64,000 nt of DNA from a virus, in IMG/VR virus record IMGVR_UViG_3300017991_000049, positions 128,001-192,000 of that record; one strand, 5' to 3'. The position numbers were made by a program, and so were the translations under genes. The notes below the pieces were generated by a model. That model saw only the letters and a program-made list of their open reading frames with translations. It did no database searches and had not been told where the DNA came from. Below are positions 891 through 38,425 of the stretch, in pieces. The first letter of the stretch is position 1; each line of letters opens with the position of its first letter.

Positions 891-1000
891 ACCACTCCTC
901 ACCACATACGGTCGCCCCAACCGCTCGATCCCCTGGAACGCCGCCTGGTGCCGATCGTTGAGTCAAGTCTAGCCGCGTGTACTTCGCAAGCAGAGGAACT

Positions 1001-1228: not shown

Positions 1229-1266
1229 CTTCTTCTCCTAACGCTATCTAACGTGTTGTGCTGCGC

Positions 1267-2453: not shown

Positions 2454-2474
2454 CTACAAACTAAAGTGCGACTT

Positions 2475-3216: not shown

Positions 3217-3256
3217 ATCGCAATGGCGAATTCGCTTGGAAACAGATCGTTCATGG

Positions 3257-5555: not shown

Positions 5556-5556
5556 T

Positions 5557-5572
5557 TTGTTCCTGTGATCAA
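5557..5572 (-). promoter_or_regulatory. Conserved 16-bp motif (copy 2)
   Basis: The plus strand reads ttgttcctgtgatcaa. It fills the 19-nt gap between a stop codon and the ATGATG start. Confidence 0.45.
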
Positions 5573-5574
5573 AA

Positions 5575-9762: not shown

Positions 9763-9770
9763 GGCTATCC

Positions 9771-10673
9771 CTAAAGCTGAATGCCGGGCCAGCGTGCAAT
9801 CTTGTCTCGGCTCGGGCTGACCTTCTTGTCGCTGAGCCCGTCAGTCGCTTCGGTGGTCGGACATGCCGGCTTGAACCCGCCAGCGGCCGGACCGTATGTG
9901 CTGTTCTGCAACACCTGCGTCACGCTGGGCACGAGCATGGCCAGCTTGTCGTAGGCATCCTTTTCCTGCGCAGCCTCCTGCTTCTTCTTTTCCTTCTCTG
10001 CCCGCTGGTTCTCGTACTGCTGTTCGTAGTTGTTGCCGGGCAGCCACTTGTCGAGCAACATCGAGGTCGGTAGGCCGGCAGCCAATCCGCCGATGCCCAT
10101 ACCAGCTAGACTGCCCAGCGGATGTCCAGTCATTCCACCGGCTGCGCTACCAACACCCATACCAGCAAGCAGGGGAACCACTGAGCCCCAGGTGTGCAGA
10201 CTGTTACGCTCTGTGTCTGGCATTTCACCGCTTTCCCAGCTAGGCGCCTTCTGCCGCCCGCCAAGCGCATAACCGGCAACGCCGCCTGCGCCCATACCGC
10301 CGAGCGCGCCGAGGCCAGCACCAGCGCCGATGTCTTCACCCATGAGATGTGCGATAAGCGCACCTAGGCCAGCGCCACCGGCGCCGCCACCGAGCATACC
10401 AAGACCGGTCTTAGCGCCACGCCGTGCACCTCTCGCATAGCCCTCAGTGCGGTTGCCGGACGGCGCAAACATCGCACCAAGTCCGCCGCCGATGAGGCCG
10501 GTGTCCGAAATGCTCTGCTTCTCCAGTGCGAGCTTCTCCAGCCGCTCAGCACACGCCTCGGCCATCTTACGACGACCCCTGCGCTTCTTGAGCGCTTTGG
10601 CGACGATCTTGTCCTGCTCGTCGTCCTCTTCGATCGGCTTACGGACGGCCATTATGTCTTGTGGGTCAGGCAT
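9771..10673 (-). CDS. Glycine-zipper membrane protein
   Basis: The product has GxxxG-rich repeats such as 'GIGGLAAGL' and 'GAGAGLGALGGMGAGGVAGYALGG'. An AAGGAGAG ribosome-binding site lies upstream. Confidence 0.45.
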   Translation of the reverse strand: MPDPQDIMAVRKPIEEDDEQDKIVAKALKKRRGRRKMAEACAERLEKLALEKQSISDTGLIGGGLGAMFAPSGNRTEGYARGARRGAKTGLGMLGGGAGGAGLGALIAHLMGEDIGAGAGLGALGGMGAGGVAGYALGGRQKAPSWESGEMPDTERNSLHTWGSVVPLLAGMGVGSAAGGMTGHPLGSLAGMGIGGLAAGLPTSMLLDKWLPGNNYEQQYENQRAEKEKKKQEAAQEKDAYDKLAMLVPSVTQVLQNSTYGPAAGGFKPACPTTEATDGLSDKKVSPSRDKIARWPGIQL

Positions 10674-10686
10674 CGTTCTCTCCTTG

Positions 10687-12138
10687 TTATGCGTATGACG
10701 ACAAGCGGCCGGCCTGGTCGAGCTGGTCTCGTAGGCCGCTGTGCAGGATATCCGCGCTCTGGTCGCTCATGGCGGTGTTGAACGCGTTGGGGTCATGCCC
10801 GGTCTCGAACTGGTCGCGCCGGGCCAGGTAGTTCTGCTGCGGCAAGCTGACGTCAGCACCGCCACGCAAGCCAGCACGCGCCTTGGAAGCGATCATGTCG
10901 CCCCGGCGCTCTAGGCCGCTGTAGTAATCCATCATCTTCTGGGCGTTGGCCTTCTGGCCCTCGCCGATCACGCTGCCACGGCTGGACAGTCCACCAACGT
11001 CGCCCTGTCGGAGCGAATCGTAGTATTCCATCTGTTCGCGGAATCGGCTGTCGGCCCACGGTGACTTCTGTTCCGGTACCGCACCACCGCCACCGGTGGC
11101 CTCGAAGCGCGCTGTGGCGTCAGGGAGATCCATGCTATCGGGCGGAGGGCTTTCCATCGTGCCCGACGCCATCGCATCACCAGGCGTACCAGGCTCAGCA
11201 GGCGCGTTCATGCCATCCATCCTGGCAATCTCAGCCTCGAAGCCTGGGCCACGAGGATTGGGCGGCTCGTTCATGCCATCCATCCTGGCGATCTCTGCCT
11301 CGAAGCCTGGGCCACGAGGGTTCGGTCCAGGCCCGCTCTCTGGCATGCGCGCGTTCATGTCGGCCACGGCCGCCTCAAAACCAGGGCCACGAGGGTTGCC
11401 AGGCTCAGGCGGCGCATTCATGCCGTCCATACGTGCAATCTCTGCTTCGAAGCCTGGACCACGTGGATTGGGCACAGGACCACTCTCAGGCATCCTGGCG
11501 TTCATGTCGGCCACAGCAGCATCGAAACCAGGGCCACGAGGGCTGTCCGGCTGTTGCCAGTTGATCTCCGGAAGCGGAGGCCCAGGGTACTTGTCCTTGG
11601 CGAGGTCAGGCGCACCAGGCTTAGGCGCATTGCCTGTAGGCTCACCGACAGTATCCCAGTTGACGTCCGGGAGCGGACCGCCAGGCGGCTGGTCGTAGGC
11701 TGCATCAACAGGCCCGCCCATGGCCGGGCTGATCGGCTGCTGCGGTGCTTGCGGAGTTGCAGGCTGCTGTGCTGCTACAGGCTTAGGCGCAGGACGCCGG
11801 CCGCTCGAATAGAACGAGTAATCGGCTGTTCTGTTGGGGTTGGCCGGGCCGCTGAGTGTTGCGCCCGGTGCGCCACCAGCGCCGACACCGCTGGCAGCAA
11901 GCGCCTTGGGTATGTCCTGAAAGCCCTTGTTGGCCATCATGGGCAGCTTAGCGGGCGGACGGGTAGGCGGCTTCAGCCCACCGACGCCACCTGCCATTGG
12001 CTTGGGGCCTACTGGATTGAGCGCCTTGAGACCGGCGCCTCCGACGCCACCAGCGCCACCAAGAGTCTTAGGTGGCTCAATAGGGGCAGCTTCCTTGAAC
12101 AGGCCCACGCCGGCCTGCAGAAGTTCTTGAGAGTTCAT
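10687..12138 (-). CDS. Repeat protein (about 5 copies of NPRGPGFEAEIARMDGMN)
   Basis: The product has tandem ~30-aa repeats and a Pro-rich linker. An AAGGAG ribosome-binding site lies upstream. Confidence 0.5.
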   Translation of the reverse strand: MNSQELLQAGVGLFKEAAPIEPPKTLGGAGGVGGAGLKALNPVGPKPMAGGVGGLKPPTRPPAKLPMMANKGFQDIPKALAASGVGAGGAPGATLSGPANPNRTADYSFYSSGRRPAPKPVAAQQPATPQAPQQPISPAMGGPVDAAYDQPPGGPLPDVNWDTVGEPTGNAPKPGAPDLAKDKYPGPPLPEINWQQPDSPRGPGFDAAVADMNARMPESGPVPNPRGPGFEAEIARMDGMNAPPEPGNPRGPGFEAAVADMNARMPESGPGPNPRGPGFEAEIARMDGMNEPPNPRGPGFEAEIARMDGMNAPAEPGTPGDAMASGTMESPPPDSMDLPDATARFEATGGGGAVPEQKSPWADSRFREQMEYYDSLRQGDVGGLSSRGSVIGEGQKANAQKMMDYYSGLERRGDMIASKARAGLRGGADVSLPQQNYLARRDQFETGHDPNAFNTAMSDQSADILHSGLRDQLDQAGRLSSYA

Positions 12139-12183
12139 TGTCCGCTCCTTGGACTTGTGTTCCGCTCCTCTAATTTACCAGCT

Positions 12184-12822
12184 TTACCCCTCTGGGACAT
12201 AGAGACCTTCGAACAACTTCCAGTCGATCTGGTCGGTGATCTGGCGGATGTGTTCGGGCTTCAGTAGCTCCAAATACTGCTTTTCCGTGTAGTATTGGCG
12301 CTTGAACTTGTACTGAGGCATCCCTCCAGGGGTACTGCCTGGCCGTACAATCGTCTCCGGCAGCGCGTCCCAGCGCTTCTTCGGCGGGCCCAGCAGCTCG
12401 GTCATCGGCGCGTAGAGCGCGTCCAGCGACTCCAGCACGTCCTCGTACCGAACGATGGCCTTGTCGTACTTCGTCTTGAACCAGGCCCGGTAGAAGTTGT
12501 TGTACTGCCCGATGCGGTAGCCCAACTTCGCTGGCCCGTACGAAAACGGAATCTTGGTGTCGGGGATCTTGGTGCCCTGATGGCCTGCCTGCACTGCCCA
12601 TGCATGCCAACTGACGATCCACGCATAGGGATCCTTCAAATTGATCAGCAGAACAGTATTGAGCGGCCAATCTCTCGAGTCCTGTACTGTGCGGTGCTTG
12701 GTAGTACGCCCGCGCTTACCGCGGCGACCGACCAGGTGATTGTATCCCCAACCATCTTCCACCATCTTGCCACACATGGTCGTGCCAGAGCGTGGCAATC
12801 CTCGCTGTTGTACCTTACGCAT
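12184..12822 (-). CDS. Sulfotransferase-domain protein
   Basis: The N-terminal 'RGLPRSGTTM' is a 5'-PSB motif. Confidence 0.45.
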   Translation of the reverse strand: MRKVQQRGLPRSGTTMCGKMVEDGWGYNHLVGRRGKRGRTTKHRTVQDSRDWPLNTVLLINLKDPYAWIVSWHAWAVQAGHQGTKIPDTKIPFSYGPAKLGYRIGQYNNFYRAWFKTKYDKAIVRYEDVLESLDALYAPMTELLGPPKKRWDALPETIVRPGSTPGGMPQYKFKRQYYTEKQYLELLKPEHIRQITDQIDWKLFEGLYVPEG

Positions 12823-12830
12823 ATCGGTCC

Positions 12831-13517
12831 TTACGTCTTGGAGAACTTGTTCAGTGTGCTGTCTATCAACGTGGACGGTAACGGCTTGCCGAGCGCTTGC
12901 TCAGTGGCAGCGAATTGGTCCGGTCGTGACATCATGTTCCACGTGGTGCTGCCTGCAGCCTCTCCAGCGCGCTGACCGAAGTTCTTAGCCCAGTCAGGCG
13001 ACCAGTCTGGCAGGTAGCTCTGCGCCTTGTTGGCACCTACGCTAGGCGCTGCAAGACCAGCGAAGTACCGCGGAAGCTCCTGCGCTGCCACGCCTAGTCC
13101 GCCGCCTAGTGCACCACCACCGAGCATGCCCTTGGATATGCCGCTGAGCATATTCGACATGTAACCGGCCTTGGGCGCAACCTGATCGTAGTCAACGCCC
13201 ATTGACTGCAGCATCTGGATCTCTTCGGGATCCAGCTCGCCCGCTTCCTCGACGTTGACCATCTTCATGACGATCTGCGGGTCGATACCGGCTGACAAGA
13301 GCTGCTGCGCCATGTCCTGATCGATCGGTTCGCGGTAGCCGCCGCTGATGTTGCTCAGACCGCCAGCAAGGCCACCAGCAAGGCCACCAAGGCCAGCGCC
13401 CACGATACCGCTCTTGAGCGTCGGATCCCAGCCAGACATAGCTTCCTGGGCCTTGGAGGCCAGGTTGGCCATCCAAGGCGCTACGGCGACTTTCTCTAGG
13501 GTTGCGTACTTGTTCAT
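12831..13517 (-). CDS. Gly-rich (glycine-zipper) protein
   Basis: The product has 'GIVGAGLGGLAGGLAGGLSNISGG' and 'MLGGGALGGGLGVAA'. Confidence 0.4.
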   Translation of the reverse strand: MNKYATLEKVAVAPWMANLASKAQEAMSGWDPTLKSGIVGAGLGGLAGGLAGGLSNISGGYREPIDQDMAQQLLSAGIDPQIVMKMVNVEEAGELDPEEIQMLQSMGVDYDQVAPKAGYMSNMLSGISKGMLGGGALGGGLGVAAQELPRYFAGLAAPSVGANKAQSYLPDWSPDWAKNFGQRAGEAAGSTTWNMMSRPDQFAATEQALGKPLPSTLIDSTLNKFSKT

Positions 13518-13527
13518 TGTCTTGTCC

Positions 13528-14691
13528 TTATAGCCACGGCACAGGATCGCCGATGTCTGGGAACTCCGACAGGTCTACGGGCGACAAAGAATAGCCGACC
13601 GGCAACGTTGCAGCGATCAGATCGTATTGACCATTGACTGCGCACGAGCCGCTCACCTTCTCTCCATAGTTGGCAACAGCCCAGTGCTGCGATACCCACA
13701 CCAACTCGTTGTTGACGATGATGAACTGCGGATCCCCCGAATCGCCGGTATAGATCTGTTTGTCTGGCGGATAGAAAGCCGCACGCTGCGCATCGCCCGA
13801 AACGAACTCTGGATCTCGTGTACGGAAGCTTTGCCACTTGGAGGTGCCGTAGCACCCGGTTATGTCCATCACCAATGCGTCTTCGCGGTTGTTGCGACTG
13901 TTCTGGCAGAACGTCGGTATGCCGTAGGCTTTAACATCAGGGTCTTCGAAGCTGATGTAGCTCTTGCCAGTGAACTTCACGGCGTCTTCAGGCCGCAGGA
14001 ACTTGCACGGCGTGATCGTGCCCGGTAAGTCTAAGTTCAGCTCGCACACTGTTATGTCAAGCGTATGTCCGCCATCCTCCGGCGGCCTGAAGAGCGATGT
14101 CTTCGACTGAATTGTGCGCTTCTCTACGGCGTTGGCCATCGTTATGAAGTGCAACTCAGCGCCGACTGGTGGATCCCAATGCGTTGCGGCTATCACGTGC
14201 TTGGGCGTGATCAACGTACATGCCTGTTGGCGGTTATTCGTGTTGTACGGCGAGATGCACGTCATATCGATGTCCGCTGCCCAGCAGTTGACATTGCGCA
14301 CGTACGTGTCGGTCTCCTCGACACGGGTCGTGTACATTGGGAGCGCCACATCGGGATCAAGCCCACGGATCCGATCGTCGACCATGGCCGAGGCGTGCTC
14401 AAACAACGTGATAGGCGCCTGCGACGAGGACGATGACGACTCCACGACAACAGGCTCAGGGCTGACCGTACGAGGTGTCTCCTCGCCAAGGTGCCAGGGG
14501 TCGTTCTCTGTGGAGGCTCTGTCTGGCGCAGGGTAGCCGTCAGGGATGCCAGAGGCGCGCGGCTGTGGCCGCCACACAGGGTAGACGTGGATCAGGCTGT
14601 CCTGGGGCACAACGGTAGCGTTAGGGCGCCGATACGTGGTTCGGATACCCTCCCGCTCTAGGAATCGTCGTGCGTCGCCTGTGATTGCCAT
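13528..14691 (-). CDS. S1 (trypsin)-like serine peptidase-fold protein, paralog 1
   Basis: 'LITPKHVIAATHW' resembles the TAAHC motif and 'TGDSGDPQFIIVNNELVW' resembles GDSGGP. The N-terminal 100 aa are shared with the adjacent paralog. Confidence 0.5.
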   Translation of the reverse strand: MAITGDARRFLEREGIRTTYRRPNATVVPQDSLIHVYPVWRPQPRASGIPDGYPAPDRASTENDPWHLGEETPRTVSPEPVVVESSSSSSQAPITLFEHASAMVDDRIRGLDPDVALPMYTTRVEETDTYVRNVNCWAADIDMTCISPYNTNNRQQACTLITPKHVIAATHWDPPVGAELHFITMANAVEKRTIQSKTSLFRPPEDGGHTLDITVCELNLDLPGTITPCKFLRPEDAVKFTGKSYISFEDPDVKAYGIPTFCQNSRNNREDALVMDITGCYGTSKWQSFRTRDPEFVSGDAQRAAFYPPDKQIYTGDSGDPQFIIVNNELVWVSQHWAVANYGEKVSGSCAVNGQYDLIAATLPVGYSLSPVDLSEFPDIGDPVPWL

Positions 14692-15858
14692 TTATGCCTC
14701 CGATGCGCGCCATGCGCACATTGGGCCGACGTCTGGAAACCCGGATATGTCAATCGACCCCAATTCGTAGCCTACCGGTAACAGCGCATTGATGTCTGCT
14801 GCCATTCCGCTTAGAAACGGTCGGCCGGTGCCGCCGTCCCGCTGGGTGAGGATGCTCGTATGCATGTTTATGAGCGCCAACTCGCCGTTGACGATAGCAC
14901 ACGTCACGTCGCCCGAGTCGCCGGAGTTGATCTTGTTCGGATAGAACGCGTCGCGCGTTGGATCGTAGGAACGGTAATACCACGCTGTACGGTACTTGAC
15001 CTCCGGATACAGCCCGCCAATATCCATCACTTGGCCATCTTCGCGAGCGCTGCGGCTGTTCCCTACGAACACTGGCATACCAACGGCTTTGTTCTCCTCG
15101 GTGATGGGCGCAAACAGATAGCCAGGTCCAGCAAACTTCACATCGGCCTCCGCCGGCAATAGCTTGGCCGGCGTGATCGTCCCTGGGAGATCAGAGCTCA
15201 ACTCGCCGATACGCATATCAGCCGTCTGTGGCCCAGTGCTCGGGTCGATGTACGTCACGTCGGTCCAAGACATGAGCGTACGCTTCTCGACCACGTTGCC
15301 CATAGTGACAAAGTGGAGCACGCTCCCGATAGGAGGATACCAGCCAAGGTGCGTCACCGATATCACATGCTTGGGCGTGATTAGCGTAGCGCTCTTCATG
15401 TGGTTATCGTCGTTCCACGGAACGAGGCAGGTCATATCGACATCTGCGGCCCAGAAGCTGGTATTCCGTACGTACGTCTCGGTCGCACCATCTCGGACGG
15501 TGAACATGGGCACGGCGACATTCGGATCCAGTCCTCGGATACGGTCGTCGATCTGCGCTGTGGCATGCTCTAACAACGTAGTGGTCTGCACCGACGACGA
15601 AGATGAACTCTCCTCAGGCACCACGGGCACGACAGTGCGCGGCGTGACTGGGCCAAGATGCCAGGGGTCGTTCTGCGTGGAAGCTCTGTCGGGGTTAGGC
15701 GCGCCGTTGAGGATGCCAGAGGCACGTGGGAACGGCCGATCCACAGGATAGTCGTGGATGGCGCTGTCACCAGGCACAACGGTCCCGATCGGTCGCCTGT
15801 ACGTTGACCGCATCTTCGCGCGCTCCAAGAAGCGCCTAGCGTCCATGGTGACAGTCAT
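14692..15858 (-). CDS. S1 (trypsin)-like serine peptidase-fold protein, paralog 2
   Basis: The product has 'LITPKHVISVTHL' and 'NSGDSGDVTCAIVNGELALINMH'. Its N-terminus, 'MTVTMDARRFLERAKMRSTYRRP', is highly similar to that of paralog 1. Confidence 0.5.
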   Translation of the reverse strand: MTVTMDARRFLERAKMRSTYRRPIGTVVPGDSAIHDYPVDRPFPRASGILNGAPNPDRASTQNDPWHLGPVTPRTVVPVVPEESSSSSSVQTTTLLEHATAQIDDRIRGLDPNVAVPMFTVRDGATETYVRNTSFWAADVDMTCLVPWNDDNHMKSATLITPKHVISVTHLGWYPPIGSVLHFVTMGNVVEKRTLMSWTDVTYIDPSTGPQTADMRIGELSSDLPGTITPAKLLPAEADVKFAGPGYLFAPITEENKAVGMPVFVGNSRSAREDGQVMDIGGLYPEVKYRTAWYYRSYDPTRDAFYPNKINSGDSGDVTCAIVNGELALINMHTSILTQRDGGTGRPFLSGMAADINALLPVGYELGSIDISGFPDVGPMCAWRASEA

Positions 15859-15866
15859 TGGCGCCC

Positions 15867-16142
15867 CTAGATCTTAGCGACGATACCCCAGTCAGCGTCA
15901 CATGCAGCACCGCTGCCCTTGATCGTGACTTTGGTGATCCCTGACCGCTTACGGCGGAAGACCAGCGTAGCACCAGGGCGCATGGTAATGAAGTCGGCAG
16001 CGTCGTGCAGACCTTCGATGTTCACCATGCCCGGGTTAGCCGAGCTGGACAGGATGTGCACCATGAACGACGTGCAGCCCTGCTTATCTGAGTAGACGAC
16101 CGTGCCGCCCGTACCGTAGTTTCCAGTTCCTGCTGTGGCCAT
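15867..16142 (-). CDS. Small hypothetical protein
   Basis: An AAGGAG ribosome-binding site lies before MATAGTGNYG. Confidence 0.35.
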   Translation of the reverse strand: MATAGTGNYGTGGTVVYSDKQGCTSFMVHILSSSANPGMVNIEGLHDAADFITMRPGATLVFRRKRSGITKVTIKGSGAACDADWGIVAKI

Positions 16143-16153
16143 TCGTTGGCTCC

Positions 16154-17836
16154 TTACAGTGAAAGTCCTAGTCCGCTCGCTTCGCCCCACTCCGGGAGAT
16201 CCTCTGCGCTGCCGTCAGCGGGCACGAGCGTTTCGTAGCATCCCATGCAGTACCCTGCGCCTCTGGGCCGTGACCGCTCCAGGATGTCGTGCCGTATGTA
16301 CTCATTGAAGTATCCGACCGGGGTGCTGTAGATGTTGTTGCCTACGTCCTGGCCCACAGACCCGTCGAACAGCGTGAAGTCGCCGCCCGGTGCATCAGTG
16401 AAGATGTTGGCCGGCGTTGCCTCTGAGAGGTTCCCCGAGCCACCCAGCACGCTTTGCGCTGTCCCGTCTCCGTCGTCCATGTTGTAACCGGCCGTGATCG
16501 ATGCTGGCGGGCTGCCACTGAAGCTGTAGCAATTGCTACCTATCGCTGAGCTGATATTGTTCTGGGCGTAGAGTACGGGGATGTCGCTGAAGATCTGCCA
16601 GTCGAGGAAGGCCCCAGTGACGTCGTATGCCGTGTTGTTGTAGAACCAGAGACTGACATACGCACCCGACACGCAGTGGAACACATCAATTCCGATGTCG
16701 TAAAACAGGCAGTTGGCGAACGAGATGAAATGTGGCGAAGAGCCCGCGAACAAGTTCAGCCCGTTAGACAAGCCATGGAACGTGCAGCGATCGAACGCCC
16801 AGAACGTGTACGAGTTGCCAGGTGATACACCGTTCGACATGTCCTTGAACTCGATGCCGGTGACGCGGAGGAACTCTCCATTGCCTTGGCCGTTGACACC
16901 GCCGTTATTCACTTGCGTGGCAATGTACGGTGACTCGCCATCTGCCGGCTCAATAAAGGCATTCTGCGACGCCCAAGGCGCCCCGAACTCCACACCACCA
17001 AGGTCGCCACCGCCGTAGCAAATGGCGTACTCGTCGTCTCCACTACCACCGCGCGCAGCTGACCAGGCAGCCAACGTCGTGTAGTCGCCCACGGTGACGA
17101 GGTTCGTAGGCACGTCGTCAGCCAAGGCCATGCCGCTCTGCGAGACGGTCAGCGTGCCAGGAAGCTCATCGTCGTACCCTACACCGGTGAAGTACCAGGC
17201 CAACGAGAGCGTTGCCACCTCGTCCGGAGGCACCGGACTGCCTGCATAGGCGCCGGTGCCGGACAGCTGTGCCCGCTCATCTGCGGTGAACACACGGCCC
17301 GTGATCTTACACCAGTGGGACATCTTGTTGCCACTGTTGATGTAGTTTGTGTCGCCCTCCTCCCTCCGTCCGAAGTTCACGTAGTCAGTGCAGTAGACAG
17401 AGACCGGCGCCTGCATGTACGTCATGTACGACTGCTCCACGCCATCAACGTAGATCCTCGCACGGTAATCGCCGGACAAGTACTCCACAGTAATGTGCCG
17501 CCATCCAGGATTACCGTTGAACGGGGCGGTACTGGTTAGAGTCGTACCGCCACCGAACTCTCCAGTGTCTATATCGACTTTTACATTCCCTGCCTGGATG
17601 AACACGCTGTCTTCCGGTATCGTGATGGCGAACAGCATCCCGGAACCGCCATCGTTCCACTCCAGCAGCGTTTGGAAACCACTGCCGGCGTTGCTGTCCA
17701 TGAACACCCATCCCGCTATCGCCCAACCATCCTGCGGCAGGTCGAACACCGAGTTCTGGTTCACGCGGACGTACGACGATCCACTGAACTCCCAGCTCCG
17801 GGCTGCAGGCGTGATTGTCTTGGTTGTGGTTCCCAT
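16154..17836 (-). CDS. Tailspike/tail-fibre-like protein (LamG-like N-terminal domain plus right-handed beta-helix)
   Basis: The N-terminal lectin-like region reads 'WAIAGWVFMD...WRHITVEY...YVDGVEQ'. The C-terminal region has periodic beta-helix signatures such as 'NNTAYDVTGAF' and 'GNNIYST', with aromatic and Asn ladders. Confidence 0.5.
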   Translation of the reverse strand: MGTTTKTITPAARSWEFSGSSYVRVNQNSVFDLPQDGWAIAGWVFMDSNAGSGFQTLLEWNDGGSGMLFAITIPEDSVFIQAGNVKVDIDTGEFGGGTTLTSTAPFNGNPGWRHITVEYLSGDYRARIYVDGVEQSYMTYMQAPVSVYCTDYVNFGRREEGDTNYINSGNKMSHWCKITGRVFTADERAQLSGTGAYAGSPVPPDEVATLSLAWYFTGVGYDDELPGTLTVSQSGMALADDVPTNLVTVGDYTTLAAWSAARGGSGDDEYAICYGGGDLGGVEFGAPWASQNAFIEPADGESPYIATQVNNGGVNGQGNGEFLRVTGIEFKDMSNGVSPGNSYTFWAFDRCTFHGLSNGLNLFAGSSPHFISFANCLFYDIGIDVFHCVSGAYVSLWFYNNTAYDVTGAFLDWQIFSDIPVLYAQNNISSAIGSNCYSFSGSPPASITAGYNMDDGDGTAQSVLGGSGNLSEATPANIFTDAPGGDFTLFDGSVGQDVGNNIYSTPVGYFNEYIRHDILERSRPRGAGYCMGCYETLVPADGSAEDLPEWGEASGLGLSL

Positions 17837-17843
17837 GATACGG

Positions 17844-18320
17844 CTATCCCTGCGGTGCTAGTGGTTCGACATCTCCGCCTATGTCTACAGCAGTCACCTT
17901 CACCTCACTAGGCCGACGTGTCGGCCGTGTCACCCCTGTGGTGATCTTCGGCACGTACTCGTTCTCGTCGAGGATCTTCCGGCGAGTATCGGCGTCCAGG
18001 CCGGTCAGGTCGCAATACTTCGAGCACGCGTTTTCGTAGACCTTATGGCCGTCGACCTCGCCCACTTCCTCAAGCACAGGCAGGTCCATTGTTGGCGCCT
18101 GGGCGAACGGCTTACGCTGCTCCGTCTTTGTGTACGGATGCACGACCACGGGGTCAGGCGCCTTCGAGCCGTTCAACTGCGCCTCGATAGCCCTGTCCTC
18201 GGTAGTCATGGGCTTCCAGTCGACGATCTGCAGTAGCCGCTTCTCCTCGCGGCCCCATCTCGCACCGTCCTTCTTGATGCAGATGACCTCACCGGTCTTT
18301 GGGTTGACTAGCGCTTCCAT
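17844..18320 (-). CDS. Hypothetical protein
   Basis: The ORF has an AGGGAG ribosome-binding site and is tightly spaced with its neighbours. Confidence 0.4.
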   Translation of the reverse strand: MEALVNPKTGEVICIKKDGARWGREEKRLLQIVDWKPMTTEDRAIEAQLNGSKAPDPVVVHPYTKTEQRKPFAQAPTMDLPVLEEVGEVDGHKVYENACSKYCDLTGLDADTRRKILDENEYVPKITTGVTRPTRRPSEVKVTAVDIGGDVEPLAPQG

Positions 18321-18323
18321 GCG

Positions 18324-19121
18324 TTACTCCCTGATAAGGTCAAGCGTTGTCTTCCACCACTCCCAACGTGGATTCCACTCACGGTAGCGCCCGCCGTCCC
18401 ACCAGAGGAACACGCCGTCCGTGTGCTTAAAGGCGTAGGACAGCAACGTGCGCCAGGCAATGCCCGACATCGGCTCCGGCCGTCCCTTGTCCAGCCACCA
18501 TGGCCAGATAATCGGCATGATCGGCGTGGTGGGCGCCACGAAGCGCAGGGCCTGGAAATGACGCTCCATCCACAACAACGACTGCTCCAAGCCGACTGGC
18601 CGGCCAGGCTGATGCACGCCATCTCGGTAACCGTGGTCGAAGTAGCATTGCGGGGAAATGTAGTCCTGCAGCTCAAGCATCGGCTTGAGTGGGCGCACCA
18701 CGTTATCGAACCAGTGGTCAGGATCGTTCAATACTGGTCCGGCCCAGCACGCTGGCTCCTTGTAGTATCCGTACATCAGGTCGGGCCTGATCCGCCTGCA
18801 CCAGTTGAGCAAGCGGATGCGCTTCTGCATGGCATCCGGCCGAAACTCCATGCCGCCCGTTGGCACCGGCACGGCAGTCCGCCAGGACCCTCCGTTGTTA
18901 CCAGACTCGATATTCAGGTACATCAAACGACCGGCGGGCTGCTGCATCAGCCGCGCCTCCATACGCTCCTCATCGATCCACCCCGAAGCATCGATCTCGC
19001 CATCGACCTTCGGGAAGATGATCCCATGTCCCATGAAGTGGACATTCTCACTAATACCAAACAGCGCCGGGTCGGGCTGATTGTTGAACCGTAGGTTCGG
19101 AAACGCGTAGAGGGGCGGCAT
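18324..19121 (-). CDS. Hypothetical protein (possible TIM-barrel glycoside hydrolase)
   Basis: The Trp-rich product has an 'MYLNIESGNNGGSW' segment. A GGTAGGAGA ribosome-binding site lies upstream. The hydrolase call is only a guess. Confidence 0.35.
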   Translation of the reverse strand: MPPLYAFPNLRFNNQPDPALFGISENVHFMGHGIIFPKVDGEIDASGWIDEERMEARLMQQPAGRLMYLNIESGNNGGSWRTAVPVPTGGMEFRPDAMQKRIRLLNWCRRIRPDLMYGYYKEPACWAGPVLNDPDHWFDNVVRPLKPMLELQDYISPQCYFDHGYRDGVHQPGRPVGLEQSLLWMERHFQALRFVAPTTPIMPIIWPWWLDKGRPEPMSGIAWRTLLSYAFKHTDGVFLWWDGGRYREWNPRWEWWKTTLDLIRE

Positions 19122-19130
19122 TCTTGTCTC

Positions 19131-19496
19131 CTACCAGCGGAAGTGGAATTGGTATCCGTACGGGCGGTACTGTTGGCCGTAGGGCTGTGTGTTGTAGTGA
19201 GGGCCAAAGTACAGCTGCAGGCTCTGCGATCGGTAGTTATGTGGGCAGCGCTGCTGTGGCGCGTACTGTGGGCGCGCTCTGGGCGGCCGTTGGTACGTGG
19301 GCCGCGGCCGGTACTGGCGGTACTGCCGCTGGTACTGCTGTCCGTACATCGGGCGCTGGCCGATCTGCACCTGCACGCCTACCTGCGGGCCCATGCCACG
19401 CTTCTGGGGATGGTTGTCGGCCATACGCCACGACTGTGCGCTACACATGGCAGTCACGGCGAAGAACAGTGCGATAGTGAGTAGAACGCGTTTCAT
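19131..19496 (-). CDS. Sec-signal secreted Gln/Tyr/Arg-rich protein
   Basis: The signal peptide reads 'MKRVLLTIALFFAVTAMCSAQ'. The mature part is Q/Y/R/P-rich. A GAGGAGAG ribosome-binding site lies upstream. Confidence 0.45.
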   Translation of the reverse strand: MKRVLLTIALFFAVTAMCSAQSWRMADNHPQKRGMGPQVGVQVQIGQRPMYGQQYQRQYRQYRPRPTYQRPPRARPQYAPQQRCPHNYRSQSLQLYFGPHYNTQPYGQQYRPYGYQFHFRW

Positions 19497-19510
19497 CAGT
19501 CTCTCCTCGG

Positions 19511-20698
19511 TTAGTTGGTCAGACGCTCCAGCCAATTTTGATCAGCTGAACAAGATTCGGCTGCTTTCCTGTGCCCTGCCAGCACATTGGTACTCAGTTT
19601 GCCCTGTGGGTACTTTTTCTGGAGCCAGTCGAGCATACCCAGCTCGCCGCCCTGTGTGAGGAACATCAGCTTCTTGTCGCCGGCTGTACGCTGGTGGAAG
19701 TCTACGCCCAGGTCGCCTCGATCCTTCACGGTGAGGTCGCCACAGTTGTAGTCGGCCAGCTCGGCATACTTGTCCATGGCCACCTTACCAGCCATGCCGT
19801 TGAAACCGCCCACTCCCACTCCTTTACCCAAAGCCCCAGTGGCGATCGGGAAGCCCAGGCCGCTGGCGCTGCCTACACCCATATGGGCCATTGAAAAGTC
19901 CCCTGGAGCCCCTTGCCAGCTCTGCGGTTGCTGCTGTTGTACAGGCATCGGGGCCTCGTGTTTCTCCATACCGGCGAGGTTCTGCCCGGCCGCGGCCATC
20001 ACTCTTGGATCGTCGGACGGAGCAACCGTAGGTGCTTGCTGTGCTGGCACTTGGGCCACGCCAGGGGGCATAGCGATGGATGGCCGCGCTGATTTTTCAA
20101 GGCTTCGCGTCCCCAGCTCGGAGGGTGCCGACGGGGGCGCATCCGCAGTAATCCCCTCTTTTGGGAACACAGAGGTAGCCACAACGGCTGCATCCACGGC
20201 CTTTTTGATGCCACTGATAGCAGCGACCATGCGCGCGGTTTGGACATCATCAGGTAAGAAATCACAGAGTGCTATCGGTGCTGCCACTCCCGACGCAGCC
20301 TTGTCGCAGCCCCCAGACTCCATCACTTCGAGCTTGTCGTAGTATTTTCTGTCCTCTTGTAGGTGATCTTTGGCGATCTCCTCGGCCAGCTCCTCGTCGT
20401 TGACATGCTCCATCTCCACTTCTTCGCCCTTGTCAAGCTGGTCCTCTGGGTATGCGGAGTCGGGTTTGCCGTCAGCCAAACCACCAGTCAGCCGATCGGG
20501 ACCAGAGGCCATTTTGCCCACGATAGCGTGCATCCAGGGGGCGTACGCCTCCTTCTTGCGCCCCTTTTTCTTAGCGCGCTCAGGTAGGTCTTTGCCCTTG
20601 GACTCCTCGTTCCATTCGTCCACGTCAACGCCCTCAGCCTCAAGCTCGGCCTTGTTGGCATTGAAGTAACGCCGCTGAGCGTCGCTAGCGTATGGCAT
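19511..20698 (-). CDS. Hypothetical protein (possible virion or scaffold protein)
   Basis: The product has an acidic N-terminal third and a Gly/Met-rich C-terminus. A TAGGAG ribosome-binding site lies before MPYASDAQ. Confidence 0.4.
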   Translation of the reverse strand: MPYASDAQRRYFNANKAELEAEGVDVDEWNEESKGKDLPERAKKKGRKKEAYAPWMHAIVGKMASGPDRLTGGLADGKPDSAYPEDQLDKGEEVEMEHVNDEELAEEIAKDHLQEDRKYYDKLEVMESGGCDKAASGVAAPIALCDFLPDDVQTARMVAAISGIKKAVDAAVVATSVFPKEGITADAPPSAPSELGTRSLEKSARPSIAMPPGVAQVPAQQAPTVAPSDDPRVMAAAGQNLAGMEKHEAPMPVQQQQPQSWQGAPGDFSMAHMGVGSASGLGFPIATGALGKGVGVGGFNGMAGKVAMDKYAELADYNCGDLTVKDRGDLGVDFHQRTAGDKKLMFLTQGGELGMLDWLQKKYPQGKLSTNVLAGHRKAAESCSADQNWLERLTN

Positions 20699-20790
20699 CG
20701 TGCCGCTCCTAGAAGGTTCCAATCCGTTGTTCCACGCCACTCACTAGTATGGCGCATCTACACAGGGCTGGCAATGCGTGTCTGATAGCT

Positions 20791-25770: not shown

Positions 25771-27120
25771 TTATGCCGTAATCTCCTCGGGGTCGTGCAT
25801 CTTGTCTGGTGCAGTCTCCGCGGGGAGAGGCATCTGCTCTGAGATGTCAGCCCGGAACGTCAACGCCTCTGTTCCCGGCTTCTTCTCCGGCTTGACCTGT
25901 TCGTGGAAACGCCGCATGGCGCTCGTAGTCAGGCCGTAGCGCCGCTTGTTGTCCTTCTCGGTGTTCCTGGTGATCTTACGCAGCCGATTGGCCAACACTG
26001 CGGCATTCGCCTCGTATGTGTCAGCCTGCGCTTCGGCGTTGTTCATCAGACACTCGATGAAGCGTTCGATCGTTGCCGCCGGATAGTGGTACTGTGCACG
26101 CACCAGAGCGGCGCGAACAGGTGCCACACTCACATGCTTTTCGTGAGTGAACCGGTTGAACACAGAACAGGTCTCGCCGAAAGCCTCAGCGTGATCCTCA
26201 AAGAAGCACAACTGTGCCGGCTTGGACGGAGTTTCGCTCGGATGACGCATGCCGCGCATCGTCCAAGTGATGATGGGCGAAGAGCCATTCAAGTCGATCT
26301 TGCAGAAGCCTGCAGCGTTCTCAACCGTACGCTGCCGCCCAAGGTCCATCATCCGCACTGCCGCTTCGCTGAGCCCGACGAAAACGAGCGTCCTGAACGC
26401 AACGTCCTCTTCGATGCCGGCACGCAGCCGCGTCTGCCCATCGCCCAAGAACGGCTCCGGGAAGACGACGAACGAAATACCTTGTGGGGTATCCGCCCAA
26501 TTGTTGCTCGCCATGTCACTGGCGAACTGGCGCATGGTCGAATGCCCGATGGGCCGGTTGCGGCTGTTGTAGTGCTCCAGCCAATCGCGCCCGATAGTGG
26601 GAGCGACAGTCATCGGCGCTACCATCATGCCGAGACCGCACGGGACCAGCCGGGGCAGTCCCAGCTGCTTACCGAACGACTGCATCTGACGCTCTTCCGC
26701 CACCGTGATCTCGGGATCGAAATCCAGATCCAGCTCGATACGCTTGCCGCGCATCGGTGCCGGTAGCGTTGCCGGCTTGAACGCCTTGGTCGCCACAACC
26801 GATTCGGCAGACTTCAGACCCTTCAGGATGTCCATGACATCTTCTAGGTCCGTACGCACGCCGACAGGCTGCATCGTGTACAACATGCGGCAGTTCTCGC
26901 TCTTCTGTGGCTTAATGAAGAGCTCAATGCCGCTACCATCTTCGGCGAGACCCTGAACAAGCACCGGCTTGCCCTTGGCTGCGGGTGCCGGCGCCACGGG
27001 CGTCAACAACCACTTGCCGTCGATAGACTTCGCACGCAGGGCATTTTCGAGTCTTGCACGCGCTTGGCGGTGCACTCGCACGGATCCCACGCCATCCGTT
27101 AGGGTGAGTGAAAGTGACAT
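25771..27120 (-). CDS. Hypothetical protein, possibly ParB-like nuclease domain
   Basis: I chose the start at 27120 (MSLSLTLT) because a GGAGGAGG ribosome-binding site precedes it. 'FLGDGQTRLRAG' loosely resembles the ParB-N motif 'DGHHRLAA'. Confidence 0.35.
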   Translation of the reverse strand: MSLSLTLTDGVGSVRVHRQARARLENALRAKSIDGKWLLTPVAPAPAAKGKPVLVQGLAEDGSGIELFIKPQKSENCRMLYTMQPVGVRTDLEDVMDILKGLKSAESVVATKAFKPATLPAPMRGKRIELDLDFDPEITVAEERQMQSFGKQLGLPRLVPCGLGMMVAPMTVAPTIGRDWLEHYNSRNRPIGHSTMRQFASDMASNNWADTPQGISFVVFPEPFLGDGQTRLRAGIEEDVAFRTLVFVGLSEAAVRMMDLGRQRTVENAAGFCKIDLNGSSPIITWTMRGMRHPSETPSKPAQLCFFEDHAEAFGETCSVFNRFTHEKHVSVAPVRAALVRAQYHYPAATIERFIECLMNNAEAQADTYEANAAVLANRLRKITRNTEKDNKRRYGLTTSAMRRFHEQVKPEKKPGTEALTFRADISEQMPLPAETAPDKMHDPEEITA

Positions 27121-27198
27121 ACTTTCCTCCTCCTCTATTGGACAATACCCGGGCATAACGACTAGCCCGTACATCTTCTAATGCCGTGTTTCAGCACT

Positions 27199-27229: not shown

Positions 27230-27272
27230 AAAGAAAAGAGGCAGGGCCCTGGGCTTGCGCCCAGAGCCCTGC
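27230..27272 (-). terminator. Rho-independent terminator
   Basis: A 13-bp stem, CAGGGCTCTGGGC-GCAA-GCCCAGGGCCCTG, is followed by CTCTTTTCTTT. Confidence 0.5.
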
Positions 27273-27290: not shown

Positions 27291-27788
27291 TCATGCGCCA
27301 CGCATGGCCTTGGCTTGTCGTTCAAGCTCCCAGTCCATCGCGTAGCCTTGATCGCCTTCCTCGTACTCCCGGTACGCAGCGTCCCATGCGCGGCGTTCGG
27401 CGCTGTCGCTGTCGAGGAAGCCGGCGTGGACCTTGGCCCACTCGTATGCGTGTACGTCGTCGGGTTCGACGATCCACCAGTGTTCGGTGTCGTCGTGGTG
27501 CGGTGTCATAGTCCAGTGCTGCCCATCGACGTTGATCCTGAGGCCGACGCATCGGCTCTCAACCAACCTATCGCCGTCGAGATCCAAACGCGCGTCGAAC
27601 AGTGACGGACTGCAGCCAATGGTGTTGTCGAGCAGCTCGATCTGCACGTGCTCTCCCGGCTCGATCGAAGGGCTCGACGGATGGCCTGCTTGCTGTATGA
27701 CAACAACCAGGCGGTTAATCCACACGGATCTGTCGCTCAAGCCGAAAGCCCGAGCAAGGTCCGCCATCTTGGTGAACGAGAAGTACAT
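27291..27788 (-). CDS. Hypothetical protein
   Basis: The ORF is well defined. An AT-rich stretch upstream at 27841-27900 carries possible TTAAAA…TATAAG elements. Confidence 0.4.
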   Translation of the reverse strand: MYFSFTKMADLARAFGLSDRSVWINRLVVVIQQAGHPSSPSIEPGEHVQIELLDNTIGCSPSLFDARLDLDGDRLVESRCVGLRINVDGQHWTMTPHHDDTEHWWIVEPDDVHAYEWAKVHAGFLDSDSAERRAWDAAYREYEEGDQGYAMDWELERQAKAMRGA

Positions 27789-27955: not shown

Positions 27956-28711
27956 TCACGTGTAGGCCACGTGTTTCTCCTTTCTGTGTCTATGCGCCAA
28001 CAGCACGCAGGTGCCGATGATCAGCATGGTGATCGTGGATGGTTCAGGCGTAATCGCAAAGCCTCCTGTGCCATGATCGAAAGAGCCTACGAACGACGCC
28101 TCGACTGTGTCCACGTCGATGGTCCACAGCGTACCGTTGTTCCAGGCATACAGCCCGTCGGGACCGTAATCGAACGCCCAGAACGTGTGACCGGGTAGCT
28201 GGCCAAGCGGGGTCGTTGAGCCAGACAGCATATCGACCTCGACCAGCCACTTGGATGCCTGATCCCAAATGAACGCCCGGCTGTCTGGCGCAATCGCAAA
28301 CGCCTCGATACTGACATACGGGAAGAGCGTGTGCATGACCCAGTAGCCGCCGTGCTCGGTATCGATCATGACCAGTTCGTTGTCATAATTGATGCCAAAC
28401 AGGTTATCCATTGGATCGAACGCTATGCTCCTGCATGTCCGGGGCGTCGTGCCGATGTACGTGCCGAGGCCAGACACGGGATCGATAGTCCACAGCTTCT
28501 CGTGCATGCTGGTGGCGTACAGCGTGCCGTCTGAGCTGCTATCGAGTGCGCGCACAGCCGCTATGCCGCTAGGGCCGCGTTGTGACTGTACGCCGGTTGA
28601 AAAGTCGGTGAGGTACAGAACAGAGTTGGCTGTACTGTCAACGACGTAGCCGACAGTCTCCGCGCTAGCAAAGCACGGAGTCAACAGAATCAGCAGCAAT
28701 GCGTACCGCAT
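27956..28711 (-). CDS. Secreted beta-propeller-like protein with PEP-CTERM sorting signal
   Basis: The signal peptide is 'MRYALLLILLTPCFASA'. The C-terminus, 'FAITPEPSTITMLIIGTCVLLAHRHRKEK', shows the PEP motif, a TM helix and a basic tail. Confidence 0.6.
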   Translation of the reverse strand: MRYALLLILLTPCFASAETVGYVVDSTANSVLYLTDFSTGVQSQRGPSGIAAVRALDSSSDGTLYATSMHEKLWTIDPVSGLGTYIGTTPRTCRSIAFDPMDNLFGINYDNELVMIDTEHGGYWVMHTLFPYVSIEAFAIAPDSRAFIWDQASKWLVEVDMLSGSTTPLGQLPGHTFWAFDYGPDGLYAWNNGTLWTIDVDTVEASFVGSFDHGTGGFAITPEPSTITMLIIGTCVLLAHRHRKEKHVAYT

Positions 28712-29051
28712 CGTCGAACTCCTCCTCTTCATAGGGGAGCATTAGCGTCTGCCAGTAATCGTCTTGTGCCATTTCTGCCATCCAGCCTTCAACGCCAAGA
28801 CGGTGCAGCCGCGAGTAATGCTTCCTGATGTAAGGAACACGGGGGTCTTCCTCCCTGTCCAAACGCTCCAGCTCCGCTATCGCTTCGTCCGTCTCAAGCA
28901 GCAGTAGCCGCTTGAGCCAGGACAACGTGTACTTCGCGTCGCGCACAAGCTGCGCATTCAACGCGCTACTGGCCGCCGACGACGTCCGTGTGGACGCTGT
29001 CCGCCAGTAGTCAGTGACGATCTGCAACACTCTGTCGCGGGTATACGACAT
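28665..29051 (-). CDS. Hypothetical protein
   Basis: The ORF has an Arg-rich N-terminus. It overlaps the upstream end of the PEP-CTERM gene. Confidence 0.35.
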   Translation of the reverse strand: MSYTRDRVLQIVTDYWRTASTRTSSAASSALNAQLVRDAKYTLSWLKRLLLLETDEAIAELERLDREEDPRVPYIRKHYSRLHRLGVEGWMAEMAQDDYWQTLMLPYEEEEFDDAVRIAADSVDSVLC

Positions 29052-29069: not shown

Positions 29070-29510
29070 TTAGCGTCGCCTGCCGAAGAAATAGATGCCG
29101 TGGTGAGTTGCGGCAATGGGCTCGTCGGTCGCTGACATGCCGCCTCTGCGCACAGTCTCGCCCGCCAGCGGGTTGAACTTGAGGATCGGTGGCGCATGTG
29201 CGCGCCATACATCGATGCTCCCGGGCAGTTTGACTTCCCGCCCTTCTGATAAGAGGTTCGCCCACTCGCTGTGATAGGCGGGGATGATATACCACGTACC
29301 GTCCGGCGCGACCATGTACTTGCGGTACTTGGTCGTCTCGTCGTTCTCGGCGACCGTGGTCTCAACAACAGCCCAGCGCTCATAGGTGGGCAGCTCCGAG
29401 ACCAGTGTCATACCGTCACTGCGCTCTCCTACGCCGCCGACGCTGTAAATCAGCACGAAAGCGATGGCCACGATGGCCACGATGGCCACAATGAAATCCT
29501 GTGTACGCAT
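29070..29510 (-). CDS. N-terminally membrane-anchored protein
   Basis: The N-terminus reads 'FIVAIVAIVAIAFVLIY'. This stretch is encoded by a 3x tandem 9-bp repeat. Confidence 0.4.
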   Translation of the reverse strand: MRTQDFIVAIVAIVAIAFVLIYSVGGVGERSDGMTLVSELPTYERWAVVETTVAENDETTKYRKYMVAPDGTWYIIPAYHSEWANLLSEGREVKLPGSIDVWRAHAPPILKFNPLAGETVRRGGMSATDEPIAATHHGIYFFGRRR

Positions 29511-29534: not shown

Positions 29535-29569
29535 GAAAAGCGGAGGGGCGGCGACAAGCCGCCCCTCCA
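29535..29569 (-). terminator. Rho-independent terminator
   Basis: The hairpin is GGAGGGGCGGC-TTGTC-GCCGCCCCTCC followed by GCTTTTCAT. Confidence 0.45.
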
Positions 29570-37375: not shown

Positions 37376-38425
37376 CTAGCGTTGGAGTTCCGTCCATCCT
37401 GCCGCAAATTGCTTTCTGCGGTTCAACAGTCCGATGGACGCTTGCTTCTTCATCTTGACGATAAGTGCTCGGTCCTGCAAGGTGGACACGAGCGTATCCG
37501 CGAATTCCCTATAACCGGATATCACCTCCGGCACGCCAAGCCAGTTCTCCTTGGTCTTGGCTGGTACGAGCACGGAGTTCTTCCAGGATTTCAGGAATTC
37601 GTTTTGTGGGCGCATGTCCCACGAGAGCACGGGCGCACCCATGCACAACGAGTTCAGGCCGATAAGCCCGAAGCTCTCAAATCTGGACGCCCAAACGGTC
37701 AGGTCAGCCCGTGCGAACAGCATAAGCCTGTGCAAGATATTCGGATGGAGGACAAGCACGACTCTGTCACCGAACTGCTTACGTAGGTCTTTCACTATAC
37801 GCTTGGAAGACAATGACCATTTGCGTCCACAGGCAATCATCACGTTCGCGTGCGGTACCTCCGCCAATGTCCTGTGCATCATGTCGAATATCGCCTGATC
37901 GCTTCTTTGCGGTTGCGTATCATAGAGCGGGAAGTAGACACACAGGTTGTTGTGCGGTTCGTCGGTGTTCCTGCGAGAGATTGGGACAGGCACGTCCCAG
38001 GGCATCATGATCGGTGTAGTGCTGTCTAGCTGCCAATGCCGCTGGAGCGCATGACCGACACAACGATACGGGATGATGATCTTATCGAATGCGAGCACCG
38101 TGGCTGCGTCATTGGGTGTGAGTCGCTCCCACTCGATAAGCAGCGCGGTTTCAACGTCCAGGTGCTTGATGCGCCGCAGTTCGCGCTTCCTGGGCACGTG
38201 TGTCCAGATGATACGGCTGCAACGCTGTGCCCACTTGAGCAAGCGCTGTTGCCGCGCGCTGACTACTGCAGAATCCCAGACGCGGGCTACTTCACGACGT
38301 ACGACGCCCTTACCGTAGATGGTAGACGGCAGACCTTGATCCCTGGCCCTCTCGGCCAAATGGACCGCAGCATGCGCAACTTCGTGCTGCTGGTATCGGG
38401 TTATGATCCCGAGCCTGTCTGCCAT
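37376..38425 (-). CDS. GT-B fold (GT4-like) glycosyltransferase
   Basis: The C-terminal 'LTVWASRFESFGLIGLNSLCMGAPVLSWD' resembles the GT4 E-x7-E region. Confidence 0.5.
   Translation of the reverse strand: MADRLGIITRYQQHEVAHAAVHLAERARDQGLPSTIYGKGVVRREVARVWDSAVVSARQQRLLKWAQRCSRIIWTHVPRKRELRRIKHLDVETALLIEWERLTPNDAATVLAFDKIIIPYRCVGHALQRHWQLDSTTPIMMPWDVPVPISRRNTDEPHNNLCVYFPLYDTQPQRSDQAIFDMMHRTLAEVPHANVMIACGRKWSLSSKRIVKDLRKQFGDRVVLVLHPNILHRLMLFARADLTVWASRFESFGLIGLNSLCMGAPVLSWDMRPQNEFLKSWKNSVLVPAKTKENWLGVPEVISGYREFADTLVSTLQDRALIVKMKKQASIGLLNRRKQFAAGWTELQR

Follow-up and report, generated by a model that had tools for sequence, protein, structure and literature searches.

The Gene and Its Product

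The DNA analyzed here, hereafter the window, is a stretch of 64,000 nucleotides (nt) from IMG/VR virus record IMGVR_UViG_3300017991_000049 (positions 128,001 to 192,000). On its minus strand lies a gene whose product combines a predicted signal peptide, a body modeled as a five-bladed beta-propeller, and a C-terminal PEP-CTERM signal, the sorting signal recognized by exosortases. The gene is probably an exosortase substrate of bacterial type that is now carried by a large phage. Its features are as follows:

28719..28727, minus strand: Shine-Dalgarno-like GAGGAGGAG, 7 nt upstream of the ATG at 28711 (read from the sequence)
27956..28711, minus strand: coding sequence of the PEP-CTERM five-bladed beta-propeller protein, 251 amino acids (aa), stop codon at 27956-27958 (public gene calls and homologues)
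28661..28711, minus strand: signal peptide, aa 1-17, MRYALLLILLTPCFASA; signal peptidase I (SPase I) cut predicted after ASA from the A-x-A rule
28052..28660, minus strand: five-bladed beta-propeller body, aa 18-220
27980..28051, minus strand: PEP-CTERM domain match, aa 221-244 (TIGR02595 positions 1-23), from the profile score and the family tail profile described below
28040..28048, minus strand: Pro-Glu-Pro codons CCT GAA CCA, aa 222-224 (read from the sequence)
27995..28039, minus strand: hydrophobic transmembrane segment STITMLIIGTCVLLA, aa 225-239 (Kyte-Doolittle 2.13, the highest window of the protein; model helix 224-250)
27959..27994, minus strand: basic cluster HRHRKEK (aa 240-246) and five-residue tail HVAYT

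As listed, the minus-strand open reading frame (ORF) extends from 27956 to 28732 and encodes 258 aa. The ATG at 28711 was taken as the start because GAGGAGGAG lies 7 nt upstream of it and because public gene calls use the same start; the limits of 27956-28711 given by an earlier reading of the letters (the sequence-only reading) are correct, matching the public calls of the 251-aa product. This product begins with MRYALLLILLTPCFASA, continues after the predicted cleavage point with ETVGY, and ends in FAITPEPSTITMLIIGTCVLLAHRHRKEKHVAYT. The identical protein (P0001) is present on nine contigs, and Logan, ENA and JGI contigs, each assembled independently, agree at 100% identity over the gene and its flanks. 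An assembly chimera is ruled out by the identity of the flanks across these three assemblies. In base composition (GC 57.5%, and 72% at third codon positions) the gene matches its neighbors.

A Signal Peptide and a PEP-CTERM Tail

The Sec signal peptide proposed by the sequence-only reading is predicted here as well. Near the N-terminus, Arg2 is followed by a hydrophobic core and an A-x-A site (ASA, then E), and residues 2-14 form a helix in the AlphaFold2 (AF2) model. Furthermore, every homologue has an equivalent signal peptide, which stops just before an invariant Gly-Tyr pair (G21-Y22). A lipoprotein reading of the sequence LTPC was rejected, since Pro at -1 before Cys13 excludes a lipobox.

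At the other end of the protein, the order is T-PEP-STITMLIIGTCVLLA-HRHRKEK-HVAYT, terminating at aa 251. Against the NCBIfam model TIGR02595, the 258-aa ORF scores 17.1 bits and the 251-aa protein 17.0 (E 0.007). The cut-off, which the sequence-only reading had named beforehand as a test that could refute it, is 16, so the protein clears it by a narrow margin, and the call would be marginal if judged by generic models only. A pattern search (PEP, hydrophobic run, basic cluster) found this ORF as the sole match among 967 six-frame ORFs of the window.

Stronger evidence comes from relatives of the protein. An exhaustive HMMER scan of 1.84 billion representative proteins returned 1058 relatives at E<=1e-3; a word-indexed protein search with the single sequence gave no match except the protein itself. 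About 25 close relatives of about 250 aa align with it end to end at 35-44% identity, the closest being only about 40-44% identical, and their tails are textbook PEP-CTERM signals in register with that of the window protein, [IV]PEPxTLLLLGLG..RRKR, as in IIPEPATLLLLGLGAVMLRRKR. The homologues finish in RRKR-type clusters, with short extra tails in some. Across 36 homologues, P222 and P224 are invariant and E223 is nearly so, and 27 of the 36 match TIGR02595 (best E 5.6e-07). A profile hidden Markov model (HMM) was built from the C-termini of the relatives without the window sequence. This family tail HMM gives the window tail 26.3 bits, compared with 9.8 for the next-best of the 967 six-frame ORFs and a maximum of 6.9 among 2000 shuffled versions of the tail itself. 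A chance motif is rejected on the evidence of homology and shuffling. Thus, because the protein belongs to a family of canonical PEP-CTERM proteins, the call is robust, and comparison at the sequence level confirms the signal as real; the PEP motif, transmembrane helix and basic tail picked out by the sequence-only reading are borne out by TIGR02595, the family alignment and the tail HMM.

The Propeller Body

Modeled with AlphaFold from a 36-sequence alignment, the protein reaches a predicted local distance difference test score (pLDDT) of 93.7 and a predicted template-modeling score (pTM) of 0.85. A single-sequence AF2 model was poor (pLDDT 53), and the alignment-based model was used instead. 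Between an N-terminal helix and a C-terminal one (224-250), this model has 20 strands, arranged as five four-stranded blades in a closed ring, each blade carrying a motif like DG.LY...L..ID..G. Of the "repeat-rich beta-propeller-like body" in the sequence-only reading, the propeller stands, in the form of a five-bladed model, and the repeats are the five blades rather than tandem repeats of sequence.

Residues 24-97 of the 258-aa ORF give a partial match to DUF4394 (PF14339) that narrowly misses the gathering score (27.1 versus 29.6 bits), and the protein is best called, from its sequence, DUF4394-related rather than a DUF4394 member at the Pfam threshold. Other five-bladed propellers include glutaminyl cyclase of the bacterial/plant type (3mbr, 3nok), soluble calcium-activated nucleotidase (2h2n), and the C-terminal domain of YjiK (3qqz); the window protein is only 11-13% identical to these, with no evidence of catalytic or metal-binding residues shared with 3mbr, 3nok, 2h2n or 3qqz. 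From the modeled propeller fold, no enzymatic function would be inferable.

A Bacterial Family with Two Phage-Borne Members

Many relatives carry precomputed DUF4394/DUF6923 matches. The nearest described counterparts are uncharacterized "DUF4394/DUF6923-like" PEP-CTERM propellers of about 250 aa (P0008, P0152 and P0004, for example), which have the same length and three-part architecture as the window protein, share with it G21-Y22, the blade motif and PEP at 35-44% full-length identity, and come from planctomycete and other environmental metagenomes in which the informative contigs are chromosomal. One family member lies beside GroES/GroEL and URO-D in an ordinary chromosomal neighborhood. 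Another, the sole GTDB match for the family, lies in an uncultured Pirellulales metagenome-assembled genome (MAG; CAZICK010000012.1) with a complex-I-like operon, PTS EIIA and an RCC1 protein nearby. Ordinary bacterial neighborhoods were also found for a member beside T2SSE, MgtE and FKBP genes and for one beside a GFO_IDH_MocA oxidoreductase; a further member lies in a defense-island-like region of a MAG. The family is of bacterial origin, the relatives on informative contigs being mostly chromosomal. One member borders an element with integrase, Prim-Pol and HTH_17 (locus L010, 3435-10675), and the family may also travel on small integrative elements.

In addition to the window gene, a second phage-borne copy was found. 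This protein, P0014, is a PEP-CTERM propeller of the same family (locus L006, 10001-10729) encoded on a 35-kb phage-like contig (SRR31155647_135472) that has tail-fiber, internal-virion-protein and SU10-adaptor matches. The gene lies inside the tail/virion module, on the strand opposite to the virion genes. P0014 belongs to a different subclade, being 34% identical to the window protein and 44-46% identical to its own nearest relatives, and the GC content of its contig is 45%, versus 59% for the window genome. Because of these differences in subclade and GC content, the two phage-borne copies look like independent captures.

The family is absent from PHROGs, which has no family for the 251-aa protein, and from INPHARED. 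DNA and protein searches of a cultured-phage collection with the region, the 251-aa protein and P0014 gave nothing significant, and IMG/VR yielded no copy in either an exact-DNA scan or a scan with the family pattern.

The Element as a Probable Phage Genome

The window is part of an element of about 226.5 kb that has been assembled identically from several metagenomes; it is represented by the 226,517-bp contig ERZ27256796:k141_2629452, on which the window occupies roughly 112.7-176.7 kb in reverse orientation, and contigs recovered from at least four data sets agree on a length of about 226.5 kb. PHROG and Pfam matches in the window include DNA polymerase A (PolA; phrog_17, 8.6e-36), a UvsX-like recombinase (phrog_97), ThyX, peptide deformylase (PDF), a cold-shock protein and an HD protein. 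Immediately outside the window, a 1073-aa fusion of UDG, exonuclease and PolA is encoded, along with DnaB-like and ResIII helicases and an SMC-like ATPase. Compared with the polymerases of T5-like and other phages, the polymerase shows about 25% identity. Furthermore, three IMG/VR viral contigs (up to 153 kb) are collinear with window positions 49-64 kb at 45-84% amino-acid identity; IMG/VR scans with the 467-aa and HD-domain proteins that neighbor the PEP-CTERM gene found no relatives.

On the strength of the replication module and the viral relatives in IMG/VR, the element is very probably a large phage, in agreement with the phage-like genome that the sequence-only reading described.

In a variant genome (a 150.7-kb contig, 99.9% identical), the DNA polymerase A gene is split by a gene for a 235-aa HNH endonuclease. 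The insertion site is as follows:

63463-63466 of the window (8361-9068 of locus L014): HNH insertion site in PolA; the window genome has the uninterrupted 1073-aa fusion

This insertion looks like a presence/absence polymorphism of a homing endonuclease.

The Host

The best marker of the host in the window is a class II (fuculose-phosphate-type) aldolase encoded at 5575-6225 on the minus strand, which looks, from its sequence, like a recent host-derived auxiliary gene. It is 65-70% identical to bacterial proteins. Named matches are to a Pirellulales MAG (68%), Lentisphaerae (58%) and Verrucomicrobia (56%), and a match labeled Nealsonbacteria (69%) is on a short contig. The Pirellulales aldolase has a plainly chromosomal setting (GH57, RpiB, Rpe, MoaE, HU and a tRNA synthetase; 64.6% GC). 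Since this aldolase and the GTDB match of the PEP-CTERM family both point to the order Pirellulales of the Planctomycetota, the host would most likely be a Pirellulales-like planctomycete.

Such a host would belong to a phylum in which the exosortase system was recognized early. Planctomycetes are among the PEP-CTERM-positive lineages; Rhodopirellula baltica has 12 PEP-CTERM proteins and an EpsH homologue, RB2461; and a family of R. baltica paralogues was the basis on which PF07589 was first built (Haft et al. 2006, PMC1569441). In Stieleria maiorica, another member of the Pirellulales, a PEP-CTERM gene adjoins exopolysaccharide genes (PMC7293339). The sequence-only reading had proposed that the gene narrows the host to an exosortase-positive lineage, and the two host-derived genes now lend this proposal support by leading to the Pirellulales, in a phylum with both PEP-CTERM proteins and EpsH.

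Neighboring Genes and Other Cargo

The PEP-CTERM gene is the third of four co-directional minus-strand genes bracketed by two terminator-like hairpins:

29541..29569, minus strand: strong intrinsic-terminator-like hairpin (12 bp, 10 GC, T-run), closing the preceding transcription unit
29070..29510, minus strand: gene 1, 146 aa, N-terminal hydrophobic anchor, no family match
28665..29051, minus strand: gene 2, 128 aa, no match; shares 47 nt at its 3' end with the start of the PEP-CTERM gene
27956..28711, minus strand: gene 3, the PEP-CTERM gene
27291..27788, minus strand: gene 4, 165 aa, no match
27241..27272, minus strand: strong intrinsic-terminator-like hairpin (14 bp, 11 GC, T-run), ending the four-gene unit

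Pfam and PHROGs gave no matches for any of the three partners. The gene at 25771-27174 on the minus strand, two positions downstream of the PEP-CTERM gene in gene order, encodes a 467-aa member of phrog_5931, a family of unknown function.

The element also carries numerous genes for sugar and sulfate transfer, together with other cargo:

135-920, minus strand: GT15-like glycosyltransferase (eukaryote-type alpha-mannosyltransferase family)
1019-1228, minus strand: cold-shock-domain protein
1264-1566, minus strand: GroES-like co-chaperonin (Cpn10), 100 aa, adjoining the cold-shock gene
1572-6297, minus strand: rhaM-domain protein, lyxose-isomerase-like cupin and the aldolase
3257-3907, minus strand: papain-like Peptidase_C1 protein, among the sugar genes
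3888-4523, minus strand: sulfotransferase
37376-38425: GT1-family glycosyltransferase
53632-54351: sulfotransferase
Just outside the window, in about 4.4 kb beyond its low end (locus L023, 15345-20471): cytidylyltransferase, GT25 and two more sulfotransferases

At least four sulfotransferases are present (Sulfotransfer_1/3, _2 and two of _4). This unusually dense set of glycan and sulfation genes suggests, at the level of sequence, that the phage may modify the surface polysaccharide of its host. One ORF of the window matches the "peptidase" family phrog_16701 at 3.9e-52.

A further region consists of 13 co-directional minus-strand ORFs at 7141-20740 (873, 300, 483, 212, 228, 387, 388, 107, 560, 158, 265, 134 and 409 aa). 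These have no Pfam or PHROGs matches except DUF5661 in the last, 409-aa ORF. The 873- and 560-aa ORFs have no match in cultured phages; PDB sequence searches with two large ORFs of the window, one of them the 560-aa ORF, were empty. The adjacent 387- and 388-aa ORFs might be paralogues, and the run as a whole could be a very divergent virion module.

Alternative Explanations

Taken together, these results have led to the following reading, which we consider probable: the gene is a bacterial-type exosortase substrate that was captured from a bacterial lineage by a 226.5-kb uncultured phage and has since been ameliorated in base composition. Several observations weigh against it. The score against PF07589, 17.3 bits, lies under the Pfam gathering score of 20.7, although Haft et al. 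(2006, PMC1569441) argue that PF07589, as originally built, extended beyond the true signal. With the family tail HMM, for which the median is about 35 bits, the window tail (26.2 bits in the family comparison) falls in the lower quarter. It is among the more divergent tails of the family, with Thr replacing the Ile/Val that precedes PEP, a smaller number of Gly residues, HRHRKEK in place of RRKR, and five extra residues, and recognition of such a divergent, low-scoring tail by an exosortase would not be assured. No exosortase family occurs among the Pfam matches of 83 window ORFs. The gene was not found by pattern scan in the IMG/VR relatives and so is not conserved in the phage lineage. Finally, no capsid, portal, terminase or tail gene was seen with PHROGs, Pfam, PDB sequence search or tblastn against phages in the window and about 14 kb beyond it, out of the 226.5 kb of the element.

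The first group of these observations bears on the main rival explanation, which we regard as unlikely. In this model, the tail has decayed to a plain membrane anchor, and the exported propeller stays attached to the inner membrane, on its outer face, without the action of an exosortase. The sub-threshold PF07589 score, a TIGR02595 score just 1 bit over the cut-off, and the departures from the family consensus at the residue preceding PEP, within the Gly-rich helix and within the basic cluster all favor such decay, as does the fact that P0014 is likewise low on the tail HMM (24.3 bits), so that both phage-borne copies lie well below the median. However, PEP, the following Ser/Thr, the helix length and the basic cluster have been kept although the body is at only about 40% identity, and an anchor alone would have no need of PEP. 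Moreover, the tail far exceeds the shuffle maximum in the ORF scan, and eight bacterial family members score below it.

Alternatively, the element could be a segment of a bacterial chromosome, a megaplasmid or another mobile element, in which case the gene would be an ordinary resident PEP-CTERM gene. The absence of recognizable virion genes is compatible with this idea, as are the lack of any DNA or protein match to the gene in the cultured-phage collection and the many metabolic-looking genes (aldolase, sugar isomerase-like, glycosyl- and sulfotransferases, GroES). However, there are no tRNA genes in the 64 kb and no recognizable housekeeping genes, such as ribosomal ones, among its family matches, and 74 of 91 window ORFs lie on the minus strand, tightly packed, the majority without a family match. 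A PolA with UDG and exonuclease domains is typical of phages, and it is accompanied by UvsX-like, ThyX and PDF genes and, in the variant, by HNH within PolA. The collinear relatives are cataloged as viral in IMG/VR, and the element keeps its size across samples. A non-phage origin is consequently quite improbable.

It is very improbable indeed that the protein is a virion component, such as a receptor-binding tail-fiber propeller, rather than a host-surface protein: beta-propellers are known in phage structural and fiber proteins (BFVD matches) and P0014 is encoded within a tail/virion module, but a Sec signal and a C-terminal anchor with a sorting motif would export the protein whereas tailed-phage virions assemble in the cytoplasm, the P0014 gene lies on the other strand from the virion genes, as an inserted moron would, the window gene sits in a small terminator-bounded orphan unit away from large structural genes, and, the two phage copies excepted, the other relatives with readable context are all small proteins that stand alone, encoded on contigs of bacteria or mobile elements.

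A Model for the Probable Exosortase Substrate

If the gene is a captured exosortase substrate, the phage probably places its own protein on the surface of the infected cell. As predicted from the sequence, the pre-protein would be exported by the Sec system of the host and its signal peptide cut after Ala17. Sequence and model together suggest that the propeller would fold outside the cytoplasm while the C-terminal helix anchors in the inner membrane and the basic cluster stays on the cytoplasmic side. By analogy with PEP-CTERM proteins in general, a host exosortase (EpsH/Xrt family) would then read Pro-Glu-Pro and remove the anchor, and the propeller would be passed to the cell surface or the exopolysaccharide layer. 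There, speculatively, it might serve as a binding module that alters the surface of the infected cell to the benefit of the phage. Most plausibly, receptors would be blocked or masked against further phage adsorption (superinfection exclusion), or the matrix or aggregation would be altered; another possible benefit might be a smaller loss of progeny on debris. The propeller may also act jointly with the glycosyltransferases and sulfotransferases of the phage. The analysis itself establishes the gene, its domain anatomy, its membership in a family of bacterial origin and its phage-like surroundings; in this model, we infer the identity of the host, exosortase processing and the role in infection.

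Relation to Known Systems

The protein belongs to a known class, that of PEP-CTERM/exosortase substrates (TIGR02595, PF07589; PMC1569441), exemplified by the floc-forming PepA of Zoogloea (NF033554), with which it shares the signal peptide and the PEP/helix/basic end; what is new is the phage genomic setting. The known substrates are encoded on bacterial chromosomes, whereas the window copy lies in a phage-like genome. Its divergent tail does not reach the Pfam gathering score, and no exosortase or exopolysaccharide locus is shown in cis. Its body is a small five-bladed propeller, while many other substrates are low-complexity and rich in Ser/Thr. The phylum of the probable host, Planctomycetota, is among those in which the system was first described (PMC1569441). 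Full-text literature searches found no report of a phage-encoded exosortase substrate; the only related mention is a brief remark on a PEP-CTERM domain in a virus-like element of Dehalococcoides.

Phages are known to reach the host envelope by other sorting systems. Llp of T5 and Cor of the lambdoid phages are phage lipoproteins that use the Lol pathway and block receptors, and SasX of staphylococci is a prophage-borne LPXTG sortase substrate. In each case, a phage product carries an envelope sorting signal of the host and is delivered by host machinery, as is proposed here from sequence alone. The window protein would differ in using the exosortase system and in having a host from a different phylum. 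No general principle is changed by the finding.

Implications

PEP-CTERM/exosortase sorting is common in environmental Gram-negative bacteria and poorly understood, and a phage-borne substrate would offer a compact, dispensable cargo for studying how exosortases act on their clients and where these clients go. To our knowledge, very little is known of planctomycete phages; the PEP-CTERM gene provides a sequence-based clue to the host of an otherwise orphan phage lineage of about 226 kb. Considered with the unusually rich repertoire of glycosyltransferases and sulfotransferases, the gene suggests surface remodeling as a major theme of this virus-host pair. A broader idea, which we offer tentatively as a possibility, is that phages of planctomycetes, and perhaps of other exosortase-bearing hosts, repeatedly capture exosortase substrates and express them alongside glycosyltransferases and sulfotransferases of their own, thereby redecorating the surface or exopolysaccharide of the infected cell. 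The two independent phage-borne copies of one family, in the window and at L006, are consistent with this idea. If it is true, such redecoration might keep out competing phages, prevent progeny from adsorbing again, or alter attachment or aggregation, and the exosortase pathway would be a previously unrecognized viral route for putting proteins on host surfaces.

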